Of a DNA stretch of 32,000 bases, positions 14,024 to 23,406 are shown piece after piece. The notes beneath the pieces were generated by a model that saw only the letters and a list, made by a program, of their open reading frames with translations, was not told the origin of the DNA and did no database searches. Each line of letters begins with the position of its first letter. The first letter of the stretch is position 1. A program made the position numbers and the translations under genes. This DNA is from Candidatus Odinarchaeota archaeon (GTDB taxonomy: Archaea > Asgardarchaeota > Odinarchaeia > Odinarchaeales > Odinarchaeaceae): positions 5,159 through 37,158 of the forward strand of contig JAWBON010000004.1 of NCBI GenBank assembly GCA_038826135.1, written 5' to 3'.

Positions 14024-15622
14024 CTAAAGCAGAGTTGAATAAGCCCTATACGGAAATTCCATTATATTCTTCCGTACTAGTTGTAATCCGATTACTGTGC
14101 CCAGCAGGAATGCTGCTATATAGCCGAATACAGCCAGATAAACTGAACCGCTTATAATAGCTAGCAGCGGGCATAAAACAATATTAGCCATAAATGTTAG
14201 TAACATAAGCCAGACGTTTAAACTATGCTGTTCCAGATACATTAAACCTAGGTAGCAGAGTATCGTAGCGGTATGGAATATAACCCCTACAGTAGCCATT
14301 CTGAAAACGAATAGCGCTGCGGGCATGGTTACGCCGAATATTGTTAATTTTGGAGTTAAAGGATCACTTAGATTCAGGAAAACGGATATAATATTCTCGC
14401 CGAAAATGTTTAGTATGATTGAGAAAACTAGTATAACTGACATAGATGTTAGTACTAGTTTTCTGAAAAACTTGTAAAAACCTTTAAGGTTTTCTTCAAG
14501 TTTTGGAAGAGGATCCTTGTATGTTCCTGAAACAGCCTTCTGAAAATTCGGGGTGAAAAGCTCCATTAGAACGGCGATTAATCCCACTCCCGGTATTAGA
14601 ATCCATTGAGCTATGTTTATACCTGTTTCGTAGAAGACGTTGAAAGCTATGAATAAACCGGATGTAGCTTGACCTGAAGAAAACCATATGAAAAATCTGT
14701 CAGCCCATAGAGTTGCGAAGTATAGAGTATTAGCTAAGAAAAGCGCTATAAAATTTTTTAGACTGCCAATTAAGCTAACCCCGCCCTGTCCACCGACTGT
14801 TTTAACCTCTGTTATGTCGTGTTCAATTTTTACCAGAAGTTGCCCGAATTCTTTAACAAGCTTCTGGTACTCTTCTAGGAATATCTCACCTTTTTCAAAC
14901 CTGTTTCGTATATCCTCTAAGATCTTGAAAAGAGCAACTCTTCTAGCAGCTAATTCCGCGGCGACATTCTTACCGCTTTTTAAAATAATGTTGAGATATA
15001 TGAATGTGCCAATAGATGCTGTGAAAAAGCCTAAGCTTTGAAAGGCTATAACCCCGCTCACACCGAATGTTAAAGCTCCTAAAACGGAGAGAGCGTAGCC
15101 TGCGATACTGCTTACTGCAAATATCGCTGTTAACTGGCCGAACTTTCTTAAACCTATTATAGGGGCGACTGCAACCCATAGAAACGATAATGCTGAGAAT
15201 TGAACTGCGAAAAGTAGACTGGTGAGTAAGCCGCCGGTTAACATGTTCTCTAAGCCGATAGCTATCGATGATGCGATTAAACAGAGAACCCCTGTTAACG
15301 CATATATTTTTAAAGTGAATCTTCCAGCGGTTTTATTATCACCCACCGCGATCTTATCTAAAACTATTTTAGTCTCTAAAGCTTGGAATCCTGCTGTTAA
15401 AATCAGGCTAAGAGGGGTTGCTAAGCTTATTACAAGACCTAAAGTTGCTCTTTCAGCCGGCAGTAGAGCTGAAGCTATGTAGTAACCAACTATTGTAGAA
15501 CATACTATTACGAGAAGCCATGGGCCGTTAGCAAGAATACTGTATGATAAAAACCTGCCTAAAAGCCTTATTTTAGTATCTTTTCTACGTTTAAGCTGTA
15601 TTTTCTCAATACTGGTTTCCAT
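14024..15622 (-). CDS. pelG: Pel exopolysaccharide transporter PelG-like, with a cytoplasmic helical insert
   Basis: PelG-type motifs ANGPWLL, LWADRFFIWF and YE...IA...IP; about 12 TM; adjacent to pelF. Start ATG 15622 (SD AGGTG plus 6 nt). Confidence 0.75.
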   Translation of the reverse strand: METSIEKIQLKRRKDTKIRLLGRFLSYSILANGPWLLVIVCSTIVGYYIASALLPAERATLGLVISLATPLSLILTAGFQALETKIVLDKIAVGDNKTAGRFTLKIYALTGVLCLIASSIAIGLENMLTGGLLTSLLFAVQFSALSFLWVAVAPIIGLRKFGQLTAIFAVSSIAGYALSVLGALTFGVSGVIAFQSLGFFTASIGTFIYLNIILKSGKNVAAELAARRVALFKILEDIRNRFEKGEIFLEEYQKLVKEFGQLLVKIEHDITEVKTVGGQGGVSLIGSLKNFIALFLANTLYFATLWADRFFIWFSSGQATSGLFIAFNVFYETGINIAQWILIPGVGLIAVLMELFTPNFQKAVSGTYKDPLPKLEENLKGFYKFFRKLVLTSMSVILVFSIILNIFGENIISVFLNLSDPLTPKLTIFGVTMPAALFVFRMATVGVIFHTATILCYLGLMYLEQHSLNVWLMLLTFMANIVLCPLLAIISGSVYLAVFGYIAAFLLGTVIGLQLVRKNIMEFPYRAYSTLL

Positions 15623-15631
15623 TGAAGACAC

Positions 15632-15744
15632 CTATAATTTTTATGAAGATTATAATAATATTTAATGATATAATTTTATATTTAAGAATATGACAATAAA
15701 TATAATAAAGTTTTGCGAAAAATATAGTGCTCAGGTGAATTGAA
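15632..15744. promoter_or_regulatory. AT-rich divergent promoter region shared by pelG and pelF
   Basis: 113-nt head-to-head gap with several TATA-like tracts (TTTTATATTTAA, TATATAATAAA). Confidence 0.45.
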
Positions 15745-17154
15745 TTGAAAAATCTCAGAGTTTGCCTAGTCACAGAGGGAACTTACCCTTACGTGGTTGG
15801 CGGTGTAAGTTCATGGGTTCACAGGTTAATTACACAGTTAAAGGATGTAACATTCGAAGTTCTCGCTATAGTTCCGGCAGGTGAATTAAAAGAGAAGTAT
15901 TCTATTCCGCCGAACCTGAAAAATATTTACAGGATCCCGATAATTGATGAAGAGAAATTCACTCAACCCAAGATTAAAACCGGAGAGTACTATGAGAAAT
16001 ATATCCGAACAGTTAAATGGCTCCACCAGTATCTTGGTGAAGATGACTTCAATAACGCTTCAGAATACTTGGTGAAGCTGCACTCACAGCTTGAAAACGA
16101 GAGACCACGGTTTTGGGCTAGTAAACCAGGATGGGAATACTTGAAGAAGCAATACTCTAACCTTAAAGAAGCCCCTTCAATGATCGAATGGATACTTGCG
16201 TGGAAGGATACCCATATACCTTTATTGAATCTAACAGCCAGTCTTATACCTGAAGCTGATATTTACCACGCTACTAACAGCGGGTTCGCCGGGTTTTTAG
16301 CTATTATAGGAGCTATGAAACATAATAAGCCGTCCATAATAACAGATCACGGGATATTCTTAAGGGAAAGACTTATGGAGTTGAGCAAAGCTAAAATAAA
16401 AGGTTTAGCTGAAGAAATGTGGCTGGATGTTTTAACCGGTCTTAGTAGACTAATATACACTAACGCAACCCTGGTAACATCTGTATGTAATTATAATGTT
16501 AACTGGGTTACTGAGAAGCTGAGAATACCACGCGATAAATTCAAGGTAATATATAATGGAGTTGATCCTGAACGGCTAAAACCTGTAGAAACACCTAAAC
16601 CACCTTATAGAGTGGTTGGAAGCATAAGCCGCGTCCACCCGATTAAAGATATAAAAACGTTCATAAAAGCAGCGGACATAGTTTTGAAAAAGGAAGGTAA
16701 TGTAAAATTCTTCGTAGTAGGACCTGTAGACGATCAGAAATATTATAAAGAATGCTTAAATCTCATCAAGAAATTAGGTATAAGCGAAAACTTCATTTTC
16801 ACAGGCTCGAGAGGAGAGGACATATTATACTGGTATAATCTCTTCGACATATTTGTTTTATCAAGCATTTCCGAGGGGTTCCCGATGTCAACGATTGAGG
16901 CGATGGCCTGCGGCACACCGGTTATAGTAACAGATGTCGGTGGAGCTGCAGAGCCTGTTGAAGACTGCGGTTACGTTATACCTTCCGGAGACGCGGAGCA
17001 GCTTGCACAGCGAATACTTGAAATACTTCAAAGCAAAGAGGTAGCGGAAAAATTCTCTGAAAACGCCCGGCGAAAAGTAGTAGAGAAATTCTCATTATCA
17101 AAAATCATGAGCGAATACGAGAAGGTCTACCAGGAGTTAGCGGTTAAAAAATAG
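15745..17154 (+). CDS. pelF: GT4 glycosyltransferase PelF-like (DUF3492-type N-terminus plus GT4 domain)
   Basis: TEGTYPYVVGGVSSW, YHATNSGFAG, TDHGIFLRER, RVHPIKDIKTFI and E-x7-E (EGFPMSTIE). SD AGGTGA plus 6 nt before the TTG. Confidence 0.85.
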   Translation: MKNLRVCLVTEGTYPYVVGGVSSWVHRLITQLKDVTFEVLAIVPAGELKEKYSIPPNLKNIYRIPIIDEEKFTQPKIKTGEYYEKYIRTVKWLHQYLGEDDFNNASEYLVKLHSQLENERPRFWASKPGWEYLKKQYSNLKEAPSMIEWILAWKDTHIPLLNLTASLIPEADIYHATNSGFAGFLAIIGAMKHNKPSIITDHGIFLRERLMELSKAKIKGLAEEMWLDVLTGLSRLIYTNATLVTSVCNYNVNWVTEKLRIPRDKFKVIYNGVDPERLKPVETPKPPYRVVGSISRVHPIKDIKTFIKAADIVLKKEGNVKFFVVGPVDDQKYYKECLNLIKKLGISENFIFTGSRGEDILYWYNLFDIFVLSSISEGFPMSTIEAMACGTPVIVTDVGGAAEPVEDCGYVIPSGDAEQLAQRILEILQSKEVAEKFSENARRKVVEKFSLSKIMSEYEKVYQELAVKK

Positions 17155-17996: not shown

Positions 17997-19515
17997 CTAA
18001 GCCATAAGTTTGTTAATAGCTTCAATTATAGCTTCAACACCGGCAATCACTATATCTTCACTAGAACCTCTGGAGGTAAAAACCCTCTTATTTTCATCCT
18101 CGATTGTGACAACAGTCTCAGCGACGGCTTGAGTTCCCCCTGTTATCGCTTCTAATCTAAACTCTTTAAGTTTGAACGGCGCAACCTCCTCGCTTGCGTT
18201 TCTTATAGCGTTTATAGCAGCATCTATAGGACCCACACCGTTAGCTGCAACTATAACAGGTTTACCCCCTATGTGAAGTTTAACAGTGGCGGTGGGGTTT
18301 ATCCTATTACCTGTAACCACTAGAATATCTTCAAGCTTAATCCTTTTCATATCCGGTGGCAGACTTTGAATAACCGCCCTAGCGATCGAACTTATATCCG
18401 CATCTGTAACCGTGATCCCCTTATCACCTAGTGATTTTATCTTTTCAACTATTATTTTTAACTGTTCAGGCGTGTATTTGAAACCTAAATTATCCAGGAT
18501 TTTACCAACACCGTGACCTCCACTCTGCTTCCCTGCAACTATCCTGCTTTTAGCCCCTATCTCCTCAGGCGATATGGGTTCATACGTCATAGGTGATTCT
18601 ATAACACCGTGAGCGTGAATCCCACTTTCATGTGAAAAAGCATTCTGGCCAACTACCGCCTTATTCGGAGCCAAAGGAATTCCTGTAATTCGCATTATTC
18701 TCTGGGAGGTTTCATAAATCTTCGAGTAATCTAGGTTAAGTTTAACCCCATACATGTATTTTAACGCTACAGCTACTTCTTCAAGAGAGGCGTTACCGGC
18801 TCTTTCTCCAAGACCGTTAACACAGCAGTGAGGTTGAACAACCCCCTCCTCTATTCCAGCTAAAGTATTAGCCACCGCCAAGCCCATATCATTATGGCAA
18901 TGTACAGAGATATTAGCTCTTGTAATGCTTTTAACTTCGCGCACTATTTTTTTCATAGCTATCGGGATAGCTACACCTACAGTATCAGGTATATCAAGGT
19001 ATGCGGCGCCGGCTTCGGAGACCTTTCTAAAAACCTCTTTTAAAAAGTCAAGTCTAGTTCTTGTAGCATCTTCAGCTGAGAATTCAACTTCTATTCCATG
19101 ATCTCTGATATATTCAACAGCCCAGACCGCTCTCTCCACAACCTGTTGGGGATCCATGTGCAGCTTATATTTCATGTGAATTTCGCTGGTAGCTATAAAA
19201 GTATGAATCCTAGATACACTGCAATCTATGGCTTTATCAATATCCTCTTTCTTAGTTCTAGCTAAAGCGCATATTTTCGCTTTAAGCCCCTCATTAGCTA
19301 TCTGCCTGACTGCTTTAGCCTCACCCTCACTTGCAATCGGAAAACCCGCTTCTATAACATCAACCCGTAGTTCATCTAGTAAATGAGCTATCTCTACTTT
19401 ATCATCACTTGTTAAAGCAACACCAGGAGTTTGCTCACCATCCCTAAGTGTTGTGTCAAAAACATATATTTTTTCAGGTAAACTATCAAAGGAGAAAAAT
19501 ATTCCTCCACGCCAA
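17997..19515 (-). CDS. leuA: 2-isopropylmalate synthase; needs a +1 frameshift near codons 7-9 (about 505 aa)
   Basis: DTTLRDGEQTPG, IEAGFP, RIHTFIATS, HCHNDMG, GERAGNA, FSHESGIH and a C-terminal regulatory domain (GVGPIDA). The catalytic frame is open from 19487 with no ATG/GTG/TTG until 19175. CimA is not fully excluded. Confidence 0.8.
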
Positions 19516-19526
19516 TTTCCACACCT
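19483..19526 (-). promoter_or_regulatory. Candidate leader and +1 frameshift cassette of leuA
   Basis: AGGTG, 6 nt, then TTG GCG TGG AGG AAT ATT TTT CTC CTT TGA TAG. The +1 frame continues TTC TCC TTT GAT AGT TTA CCT GAA AAA. Confidence 0.4.
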
Positions 19527-20181: not shown

Positions 20182-21129
20182 ATGAACGGGGGGTTCGGAA
20201 TAATTCATAACATATACATCTTAGACACTAACGGTATTCCCATCTTCACCCGTATTTACGGTGAGATAAAGGTGGATCCGACTTTAATCTCAGGGTACAT
20301 CAGCGCGCAGAGCTCGTTCTTTAAAGAGATTACAGGCCAGGACCTAGAAATGTTCGCAACTAAAGATTATAATTTCTGGCTTAGAAGAGTCGGCAGATTT
20401 CTCATAGTAATCGTCACTAGTAAAGACGTTGACCCGAAAATCATGAAGTGGAAACTATCTCAGATTCAACTAGCATTTATTATGAACCTTGAAAAAGATT
20501 CTTTAAAAACGATGATCGATTCAGTCACATTTAACTCCCTTAATTTTATTTTAGATAACACCAGGTCTGATGATTTAACCACTATAATTAAACATTTAAT
20601 CTTAGGAATCACTATTATAATAGTGGGACAGAATAGGGAGAGCGTTGCTAAATATATTTACACATTATTAACTGTCTCACCTGTTTATAAGGAAACATAC
20701 TTTTACGAGGATAGAAATGTTTTTTCAGATGGGGCTATAATAGGATCGATTAAAACAGATATAAACAGTATTTTAAGCGATAAAAGTTTCCTTTACTATG
20801 AATTTGAAACCAGCATTATTAAACTTAACAATTTAACCTTTGATTTAAATAAAAAAGCTTTAAGCGATTTCATAAGCGACTTGATCTCAAAGTGCAGAAG
20901 TATGAGTGAGATAACAGGCATAGATTTTATCAGAAATAATCTGAGGAGAATACTGAGAGGAAAGACCGCTATTAAAGAGATAATTATTAAGAAGGGAAAA
21001 CTAAGATTTGAAGACATAATAAACAGTTTAAAGATAAGTGAAGATGATTTTCCAGCAATTTTAGAGCTGTTGCAAGATGATTTAAAAAACATTATAATTG
21101 AAGATGACTCTATTTATTATCAAGGGTGA
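20182..21129 (+). CDS. Longin-domain protein with DENN/folliculin-like middle region and C-terminal winged helix
   Basis: Longin pattern IHNIYILDTNGIPIF...LISGYISAQSSFFKEITG; middle HLILGITIIIVG...YTLLTVSP; C-terminal KEIIIKKGKLRFEDIINSLKIS...ILELL. Confidence 0.65.
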   Translation: MNGGFGIIHNIYILDTNGIPIFTRIYGEIKVDPTLISGYISAQSSFFKEITGQDLEMFATKDYNFWLRRVGRFLIVIVTSKDVDPKIMKWKLSQIQLAFIMNLEKDSLKTMIDSVTFNSLNFILDNTRSDDLTTIIKHLILGITIIIVGQNRESVAKYIYTLLTVSPVYKETYFYEDRNVFSDGAIIGSIKTDINSILSDKSFLYYEFETSIIKLNNLTFDLNKKALSDFISDLISKCRSMSEITGIDFIRNNLRRILRGKTAIKEIIIKKGKLRFEDIINSLKISEDDFPAILELLQDDLKNIIIEDDSIYYQG

Positions 21130-21148: not shown

Positions 21149-21922
21149 ATGATGGAATTTCAAATAAAACAGTTTTTAAAAATCAACCCGGAGTGTTTGA
21201 ATGAGCCTATAGCCATAGTTGGTATGCCAGGTATAGCTAACGTTGGCAAAAATGTTGTAATGACATGTGTTGAAAGCTTAAAAGCGGATAAAGCTCTAGA
21301 GATATTCTTTCAAGATTTTCCAGCTCAAGTATTAGTGGACAGTAACGCTGTATTAAATATTCCTTCAGCAACGATATACCACTCTAAGAATACGGTTGGA
21401 GCTCAGGATATATTCTTTTTAACAGGTGATTTCCAGCCTTCAACACCTAAAGGAATATACGAGCTCTCTGAGAGAGCGGCTCAGATATTCTCTAATTTTA
21501 AAACTAAACTAATCATCTCCACAGGCGCCTTTATGACCAACACTCAAGTTCTCAGCCCGAAAGTTCATGTATCCGCAACATCCCCGGAAATATTGCACTT
21601 ATTCATCTCATATAGGGATGCTGTTATCATGGATTACGGGACAATCAGCGGAGCTAACGGTTTAATACCTGTAATAGCTAATAAAAAATTTGGGATAGAC
21701 GGAGCATGCCTGCTAGCTGATACGAATCCTATGGTTATGATAGATCCTCTAGCTTCAAAGACAATCATCAACTTACTAAACCAGGTTTTTAACTTAAACG
21801 TTGATGTAACCAGCTTACTAGCTCAGATAAGGAACATGGAGGAATTATTAGAAGAAATAAAAACACAGTTTATGAGCAGGAAACCGTCAGAGGATTTAAA
21901 GCGGCAATCATATATAAGTTAA
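21149..21922 (+). CDS. PAC2-family (proteasome assembly chaperone-like) protein
   Basis: IVGMPGIANVGK, FFQDFPAQV, GDFQP, ISGANGLI, CLLADT and DPLAS motifs. Start moved to the ATG at 21149. Confidence 0.88.
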   Translation: MMEFQIKQFLKINPECLNEPIAIVGMPGIANVGKNVVMTCVESLKADKALEIFFQDFPAQVLVDSNAVLNIPSATIYHSKNTVGAQDIFFLTGDFQPSTPKGIYELSERAAQIFSNFKTKLIISTGAFMTNTQVLSPKVHVSATSPEILHLFISYRDAVIMDYGTISGANGLIPVIANKKFGIDGACLLADTNPMVMIDPLASKTIINLLNQVFNLNVDVTSLLAQIRNMEELLEEIKTQFMSRKPSEDLKRQSYIS

Positions 21923-21950: not shown

Positions 21951-22316
21951 ATGAGTATTAGAATAATAGCTGAAAAACTGATTAAGTTATATGAGAAGTT
22001 TAAAGACCAGGGTAAACAAGATTTTATGTTGAAAAGTTTAGGAGGCATTACGGTTCGGGTGTTTGCCAGCGACACCGGTGAGTGTTTTAATATAGTTATA
22101 GGTGATGGTGTTCACATTGAAGACTGCTCGCAGAAAAAGCCTAATATTACTATAGAGGGGTGCAGCGGGGTGTTAAAAGAGGTTTTGGAGAGTAAGAGTC
22201 AGGCTTTCTATGATAAGGCTCAAACGGAGGGTAGGATTAAATTAAGGACCTGTAATATTCGTGGTAGATTGTTTTATTCACGTTTTAAGAAGTGGCTAAA
22301 TTTCAACATTATGTAG
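21951..22316 (+). CDS. SCP2 sterol/lipid-carrier-like domain protein
   Basis: 121 aa with SCP2 pattern (F-x-I-x-I-x-DG ... PNITIEG ... A-x2-EGRIKL). Confidence 0.6.
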   Translation: MSIRIIAEKLIKLYEKFKDQGKQDFMLKSLGGITVRVFASDTGECFNIVIGDGVHIEDCSQKKPNITIEGCSGVLKEVLESKSQAFYDKAQTEGRIKLRTCNIRGRLFYSRFKKWLNFNIM

Positions 22317-22372: not shown

Positions 22373-22738
22373 ATGCCACTAGGCGTAATAATAATAAAAT
22401 GGGATAACAAACTAGGCGGAGTAGTGGAGTCAAGGTATCTTAGGCGAGGGTGGATTCCACCATCGCTTCCAACAACACTGCTTTCAATGCATTTTCCAAC
22501 CATGAAAATTGATCAGAAAGCAGTAGACTTTGTAACCACTAAGATCGGTAATGTGAGAGTTTTAAGCTATTTTATAGGTACAAAAGCGAAAAGGTCAGTA
22601 GCTCTCATACTAGAAGAAACTGAGGAGCCTGATATTTTCAAGGATAAAATTATAAAATTTTCTGAAAAAATAAGCAGCGAGTTTGAAAAATGTAATTCGA
22701 AAATAGCTAAGTATTACGGGGAAGTTTTTGAAAAATAA
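22373..22738 (+). CDS. Stand-alone longin/uDENN-like domain protein
   Basis: MPLGVIIIKWDNKLGGVVESRY and VLSYF...VALILEETEEPDIF, a pattern I associate with Asgard longin-like families. Confidence 0.55.
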   Translation: MPLGVIIIKWDNKLGGVVESRYLRRGWIPPSLPTTLLSMHFPTMKIDQKAVDFVTTKIGNVRVLSYFIGTKAKRSVALILEETEEPDIFKDKIIKFSEKISSEFEKCNSKIAKYYGEVFEK

Positions 22739-23406
22739 TTATTATTTATGAAATCTATCTTCCCCTGAAGCTCGTATAAATCGCCTATGACAAGCGGATC
22801 CTTTAACAGCTTATTATCCACCCCTCTAATAATTCTAACTGTTGTTATACCAGCTTTTTCACCAGCCTCCAAATCTATCTCAAGATCCCCTATGAAAACA
22901 GCCTCAGATTTTTTAAGATTCAACTGTTCCAGGCACCAGATCACCCCCTGAGGCTCAGGCTTAGCGTAATCCTGGTTTTCAGTTCCAAGTACTATAATTG
23001 ATTCAAAAAAACCTCTAAGATTGAATTCCTCTAATTCAAGTTCTACAACCCTCCTGGAAGAATTACTTACTAAACCAAGCTTATACTTTAATTTTAACTA
23101 GTTTAAAACGCTAACATCTTCGAAAACACTTATTCCACCTGATCTTATCAGCTCAAGTCTTAGCTGATAGTCTTTTTCATCAAACCTTCTCCAAAAAACA
23201 CGTGGATCGCTTATACCCCAGTTTTTAAGCAGCTCCCGGTGTTTTCTACCGCTATTCCAGAATTCGTTAATAATAACACTGGTTTTTGCCTCCACACCTA
23301 ATTCCCTTAAAGTATCGATAAGAATTTTATTTAACATAGGTATACCAGGGCTTTTAACTAGGGTGCCGTCTAAATCAAAAATCAAACCATGAATCGGCAT
23401 AATCAC
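22714..23406 (-). pseudogene. HAD-family hydrolase interrupted by one in-frame TAG (nonsense allele or read-through)
   Basis: Motifs I FDLDGT, II LVSNS, III AKPEP and IV IGDLEID are all in one frame; TAG at 23098-23100 (VLN*LKLKYKLG). SD GAGGT plus 6 nt before the GTG. Confidence 0.8.

Follow-up and report, generated by a model that had tools for sequence, protein, structure and literature searches.

The question raised by this locus is whether one short archaeal protein can unite two regulator architectures that are treated as separate in eukaryotes. DENN modules are tripartite, with a longin, an alpha/beta DENN domain and an all-alpha d-DENN domain, all three of which touch the GTPase in solved complexes (PMC3521125), whereas in NPRL2 and NPRL3 the position of DENN is taken by two or three winged helices in tandem (PMC3521125, PMC3747258). 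A preliminary description of a 32,000-nucleotide stretch of a Candidatus Odinarchaeota archaeon genome (assembly GCA_038826135.1, contig JAWBON010000004.1; hereafter the window) had read one gene product as a longin followed by a folliculin/DENN-like middle and a winged-helix end, and had proposed that it combines both architectures in a possible ancestral nutrient-signalling GAP or GEF. Here we examine its fold, its genomic context, its relatives and its probable function.

Gene model

The open reading frame at 20182..21129 (+) was borne out at 315 aa (protein P0001, encoded by what we call the longin-DENN gene) in a host genome of 1.26 Mb that is 93% complete. Contigs from a hot-spring sample, belonging to a near-identical strain, span much of the gene and show few differences. 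The true start may be an ATA or ATT codon at 20200/20203, six residues past the ATG at 20182; this start is proposed from sequence because one orthologue has no ATG, GTG or TTG ahead of the conserved N-terminus and offers just ATA/ATC after its ribosome-binding site.

A longin domain of the GEF-associated class

Residues 7-115 (20200..20526, +) form a longin domain of the Mon1/Fuz/HPS1 type, as judged from Pfam, the structural model, longin/roadblock matches and motif columns. Pfam Fuz_longin_1 (PF19036) matched residues 10-82 just above its cut-off (26.3 bits versus 26.1; E 9.6e-6) and was also matched by all eight orthologues tested, and the model returned longin/roadblock structures at Z 8-11 over residues 5-112, so that the N-terminal longin of the preliminary description stands. 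The Fuz/Mon1/HPS1 class is the GEF-associated type. The tri-longin GEFs Mon1/Ccz1, Fuzzy and HPS1 contain three tandem longins, whereas P0001 has a single longin with a DENN lobe behind it.

The longin GAPs of eukaryotes carry a GP motif and an arginine finger, as does one class of longins in Asgard archaea, and non-GAP longins reportedly lack the GP motif (PMC12290439). The GP motif before strand 2 is absent from P0001, and all orthologues carry a Mon1-type G-I/L-P after a short turn. We take the arginine finger of catalytic longin GAPs to lie in the beta4-beta5 loop; in P0001 and its orthologues this is a two-residue turn varying among R, K and D, with no conserved arginine, and strand 2 carries R24, the sole arginine conserved among the orthologues. 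Helix 1 and strand 3, the usual longin dimer surface, are nearly invariant among orthologues.

The DENN and d-DENN domains

The central alpha/beta DENN domain, with five predicted strands, occupies approximately residues 117-220 (20530..20841, +) and is followed by d-DENN helices at residues 225-300 (20854..21081, +), arranged as a long hairpin and a subsequent helix-turn-helix, which doubles as the core of a winged helix. An AlphaFold model of P0001, built with 10 sequences, had a mean pLDDT of 77, with values of about 77-94 across residues 120-315; how the longin sits against the DENN lobe was poorly predicted (pTM 0.65, linker pLDDT <50). The five strands modelled within residues 145-216 correspond to the five-stranded DENN sheet, and the modelled d-DENN helices (225-238, 243-271, 276-282 and 290-300) form two helical hairpins, with an extra beta-hairpin after them.

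Structural comparison of the full model with the PDB placed chains of DENND10, DENND1B, C9orf72, DENND1A and folliculin in the nine best Foldseek rows (E 2.5e-7 to 2.8e-4), with best values of 2.5e-7 for DENND10, 9.1e-7 for DENND1B, 6.0e-6 for C9orf72 and 8.9e-6 for FLCN. The exhaustive aligner VIA gave Z 12.8 for DENND10, 12.3 for DENND1B (rmsd 3.7, 167 aligned), 12.1 for DENND1A, 11.4 for SMCR8, 10.6 for C9orf72 and 7.7 for FNIP2. The folliculin C-terminal domain scored Z 11.9 (rmsd 4.2 A), with 177 of 186 residues (117-302) aligned to folliculin 346-555; for C9orf72 196-467, the alignment took in 196 of 202 residues (109-310) with an rmsd of 5.3 A, both fits being loose. An independent ESM model of residues 108-315 matched nine eukaryotic clusters, among them DENN, DENND10, Avl9 and DENND6, at TM 0.54-0.69. 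Identity to eukaryotic DENNs is 9-15%, and consequently no catalytic residue can be transferred from them.

At the sequence level, P0001 itself gave no DENN-family Pfam match with the DENN, C9orf72-like and NPR2 models tried, and PDB sequence searches with the protein and with profiles returned nothing significant, including an SMCR8 row at E 0.88. Among eight orthologues, three matched Folliculin_C positions 3-63 (best E 3.1e-4) and one each matched Avl9 and FNIP_C, all below cut-off. Across two whole genomes the longin-DENN orthologue was the only Folliculin_C match, and none of 14 control genomes gave one. With no Pfam DENN match in P0001, the DENN assignment is thus based on structure together with the sub-threshold Folliculin_C matches. 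The models place longin, DENN and d-DENN in a three-part fold, and the folliculin/DENN-like middle previously proposed held when tested by structure (Z 10.6-12.8; Foldseek E down to 2.5e-7), the suggested Foldseek comparisons matching both FLCN and C9orf72. The middle segment quoted at that stage is found at residues 137-167 (20590-20682), while the start given for it, 20566, is residue 129 and falls eight residues early.

The C-terminal winged helix

A beta-hairpin "wing" at residues 304-313 (21091..21120, +) completes a winged helix over approximately residues 255-315. Folded alone, residues 222-315 reached a pLDDT of 91 in the order helix-strand-helix-helix-hairpin and superimposed on winged helices at Z 6-7.7 (rmsd ~2 A over ~60 residues), the best matches being cullin WHB, UFL1, RPA2 and PCI-type domains, with ScpB and many transcription factors also matched. 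The winged-helix-like C-terminus noted earlier is thereby supported, at a Z of about 7 that in the model identifies the fold and not a family.

The same residues belong to the DENN module. Superpositions on DENN structures end at model residues 299-310, and their coverage, 177 of 186 and 196 of 202 residues, is too complete for helices 276-282 and 290-300 to have been left out. Other Asgard DENN homologues have the same terminal helix pair followed by a proline-containing stretch without a hairpin, and one group stops before the pair. By sequence pattern the hairpin is limited to six proteins of a single Odinarchaeia family, P0001 being the one modelled, and is missing from the orthologues P0005 and P0010. 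The winged proteins form one clade (94/91) in a tree that includes the wing columns; once those columns are removed, the tree is unresolved between one and three changes.

Because its helices lie inside the d-DENN superposition and recur wingless in other Asgard DENN proteins, the modelled tail is the end of d-DENN plus a wing and no separate NPRL2-type module. A profile match to Asgard NPRL2-like proteins covered 33 columns (probability <3%, E 0.02); no NPRL2/NPRL3 or DENN chains appeared among the best 50 matches listed for the tail-only model, and NPRL2/3 were not among the matches listed for the full model, although absence from such lists rules out nothing. The idea of one chain uniting the FLCN and NPRL2/3 architectures is not supported, the tail helices being the last d-DENN helices and forming one winged-helix unit in place of tandem repeats. 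Nor is the term "ancestral" borne out, as only one family has the winged form and the tree leaves gain and loss of the wing equally open. It is conceivable, if rather doubtful, that the d-DENN terminal helix pair is a worn-down winged helix that is complete in Odinarchaeia, and that DENN modules and NPRL2/NPRL3 share an archaeal longin-(alpha/beta)-winged-helix ancestor; two parallel fusions, one for DENN-type modules and one for NPRL2/NPRL3, have been proposed as an alternative origin (PMC3521125). None of the papers searched mentioned d-DENN together with the winged helix, which is weak evidence of novelty. Should a structure bear out the overlap, two regulator architectures treated as separate would become linked.

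Genomic context

Downstream of the longin-DENN gene by about 20 nt lies a gene for a PAC2-family proteasome assembly chaperone (21149..21922, +; PF09754, E 8.9e-29), followed by a conserved third gene of 121 aa (21951..22316, +) that resembles SCP2 (sterol-carrier) proteins by eye, with no Pfam support. Both families of the class preserve the gene order DUF123 (reverse), longin-DENN, PAC2, 121-aa gene. PAC2 adjoins every full-length orthologue with enough flanking DNA except one, at a spacing of 19-75 nt in orthologous loci; on the short contig of P0011 there is another neighbour. The conserved block also includes the unrelated feoB and a HAD hydrolase, and the synteny therefore points to no specific partner. 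The HAD hydrolase gene (22714-23406, -) is interrupted by an in-frame TAG at 23098-23100 that is peculiar to this assembly, the gene being intact in relatives; one low-depth contig of the near-identical strain has CAG at that position, and the TAG is either a strain-specific nonsense change or an assembly error.

Next on the same strand is a stand-alone longin of 121 aa (22373..22738, +) of the Asgard NPRL2-like or "WD" type. It is homologous to the N-terminus of Asgard NPRL2-like proteins, and the genome holds five such longins; an invariant Trp-Asp after strand 1 is reminiscent of W33-D34 of C9orf72. This gene is directly next in the family f1, and a few genes off, separated or inverted in more distant relatives (L064, L094).

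No small-GTPase gene was found near the longin-DENN gene at any orthologous locus examined, and the loci read held no roadblock and Rab-like pair beside it, the neighbours being DUF123, PAC2, the 121-aa gene and the small longin. In Asgard archaea, operon context is known to say little about which regulator pairs with which GTPase (PMC10933270).

A link to leuA was rejected. The gene is divergent and two genes away, and it is adjacent only in genus g1 and at the P0003 locus, the adjacency being missing in P0004, P0010 and family f2; a DNA-pattern scan of metagenomes for the leuA junction gave no match. Its closeness is thus a coincidence, as the preliminary description had allowed. The 5' end of the leuA-like gene (19457-19520, -) has a peculiarity of its own: in five genomes (the window and L031, L034, L067 and L093) no in-frame start precedes the conserved N-terminal motif. 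A well-placed start opens a short frame that ends in an invariant TTT CTC and a stop, leuA lies +1 to this frame, and third-position variation changes frame at the TTT CTC stop. The arrangement suggests a conserved +1 frameshift on a leucine codon. Elsewhere in the window, PelG-like and glycosyltransferase (PelF-like) genes occupy 14024-17154, as recognized from Pfam matches on the L031 orthologues.

Distribution among Asgard archaea

Full-length orthologues were found only in the protein's own class, where six of seven genomes have a single copy each (31-67% identity), and are joined by a few metagenomic proteins. The closest homologues (P0004, P0010) bear the source label Candidatus Odinarchaeia. 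The longin alone was matched in 376 of 400 Asgard genomes, owing to the known expansion of longins in this group. A profile of the C-terminal half reached distant Asgard proteins, including longin-DENN proteins labelled Heimdall/Hodarchaeota and Zn-ribbon-DENN proteins, and profile-profile comparison with the Heimdall-group longin-DENN set gave a probability of 96% (E 2.4e-9, 158 columns). The tally for profile A8, 39 of 400 genomes, is partly circular, as members of two distant families were built into the profile.

In the congener G302, a genome 93% complete, DUF123 and PAC2 lie 423 bp apart on one contig (L093:6770-7194 on C14), with no trace of the longin-DENN gene at the locus, and no copy was found elsewhere in the genome. 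Because of this absence the gene is probably dispensable and accessory. Two GTPases may have been lost from G302 as well, a longin-GTPase fusion (C2) and a Rab-like protein (C5); both loci fall at G302 contig ends and so permit no inference on co-loss.

Asgard DENN proteins, some with the domain organization of folliculin, and NPRL2-like proteins have been reported, with expansions in Heimdall, Loki and Hel lineages and a roadblock-Rab-DENN operon (Liu et al., bioRxiv 10.1101/2020.10.19.343400). Archaeal longin-DENN proteins were thus already described in 2020-21, and what is unusual in P0001 is only the winged-helix hairpin on its last helices. P0001 shares with the proteins of Liu et al. (2020) the fusion of a longin to a DENN module, as well as profile homology to Heimdall-group members, but it is single-copy in Odinarchaeia, stands outside the roadblock-Rab-DENN operon and ends in a wing. 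The Heimdall-group relatives are about 50 aa longer, and at one locus (L063) the longin-DENN gene lies tail-to-tail with a Rab-like gene. Among them the same DENN half is joined to a GP-type longin in some proteins and to a Mon1-type longin in others; the longin type is therefore exchangeable, and the Odinarchaeia combination is not unique. In family f11 (L103, L105-L117), paralogous longin-DENN proteins have a longin of either the GP type or the Mon1 type, the two frequently occurring together in a genome, and are by sequence a candidate archaeal FLCN/FNIP-like pair. Another Asgard protein (L023:122-1378) has one longin and then two tandem DENN-like lobes without the terminal helix pair.

Functional interpretation

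The closest structural counterparts of P0001 are DENND10 and DENND1A/B (PDB 8P0V, 3TW8, 6EKK), which are likewise single chains with a longin lacking the GP motif and with the same c-DENN/d-DENN order, although identity is 9-14%, the P0001 longin is of the Mon1/Fuz class and not a uDENN, and P0001 has the extra wing. Folliculin, SMCR8, C9orf72 and FNIP resemble it in a C-terminal DENN lobe that superimposes to the last helices and in the weak Folliculin_C and FNIP_C profile matches of orthologues; unlike them, P0001 has no GP motif, conserved arginine finger or long insertions, and no second DENN partner was found in the genome. With NPRL2/NPRL3 of GATOR1 and the Asgard NPRL2-like longin/tandem-winged-helix proteins it shares an N-terminal longin and a C-terminal winged-helix fold, but it differs in its full DENN domain, in the single winged-helix unit overlapping d-DENN and in longin class. 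The host genome encodes separate NPRL2-like proteins with a longin and tandem winged helices (G000 C95 and C13).

Since the GP motif and a conserved arginine finger are absent, it appears more likely that the protein serves a small GTPase as a DENN-type GEF or scaffold than that it is a nutrient-signalling GAP. We envisage a compact single-chain archaeal DENN module of longin, DENN and d-DENN on which a small GTPase would sit against both the DENN lobe and the longin, as in DENND1-Rab35. It would work by nucleotide exchange or, like DENND10, FNIP or C9orf72, as a scaffold without catalytic activity, and not as a GAP relying on an arginine finger of its own. We rate this reading, with GTPase binding and exchange-factor or scaffold function, as slightly more probable than its opposite. 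The likely clients would be among the genome's Rab-like GTPases, about nine of its 16 Ras-family matches, or its longin-GTPase fusions. The winged end, composed of the d-DENN terminal helix pair and the lineage-limited beta-hairpin, would most likely be a protein-docking surface. In the closed genome G303, one Rab-like GTPase gene is seemingly in two pieces (C1 20778-21247, L148/L149).

Against any role as a GTPase regulator counts the report that longins can also act without GTPases (PMC10933270). An adaptor of this kind tied to proteasome assembly, or a nucleic-acid binder acting through the winged helix, would accord with the closely following PAC2 gene and with the cullin WHB, UFL1, RPA2 and PCI-type domains that best match the tail. 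We nonetheless regard it as quite unlikely: the PAC2 adjacency is unspecific, the whole block with feoB, the HAD hydrolase and DUF123 being conserved, PAC2 persists after loss of the DENN gene, the more distant DENN homologues in Asgard genomes have neighbours other than PAC2, the tail scores are generic for the fold, and most homologues have no wing. Still less probable, indeed very improbable, is that the protein is a FLCN/NPRL2 hybrid of ancestral type and itself supplies the GAP catalysis in a nutrient-sensing pathway. FLCN, SMCR8, C9orf72 and FNIP2 do occur among the structural matches and the tail does fold as a winged helix, yet the GAP hallmarks are missing from the longin, where R24 is the only conserved arginine, the single winged helix overlaps d-DENN, leuA is divergent with a lineage-limited adjacency, and nothing links the gene to nutrient signalling; this part of the earlier proposal is not upheld.

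The protein might instead be the non-catalytic half of a heterodimeric longin GAP, in the role of FNIP, C9orf72 or NPRL3, with the WD-type longin or the NPRL2-like proteins of C95/C13 as partner. The nearly invariant helix 1 and strand 3 would suit such a dimer, the WD-type longin is encoded 1.2 kb downstream and remains only a few genes away in every family-level relative seen, and the Heimdall-group genomes place GP- and non-GP-type longins on the same DENN half. This arrangement nevertheless seems unlikely to us, as the neighbouring longin has GG, not GP, and a short loop, is retained in G302 despite the missing DENN gene, and is separated or inverted in L064 and L094, and as no second DENN protein was found in the 93%-complete genome. 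Co-folding of P0001 with this 121-aa longin, a single pair, scored 0.00 against a mark of 0.32 and is counted neither for nor against the pairing.

With 315 residues, an origin in a hot-spring lineage and no long eukaryotic insertions, P0001 is a convenient subject for determining the structure and activity of an archaeal DENN module for the first time, and the small genome limits the candidate clients to 16 Ras-family GTPases, most of them conserved across three congeners. The function of archaeal DENN proteins, as GEFs, as GAP scaffolds or as neither, bears on the origin of eukaryotic membrane traffic.
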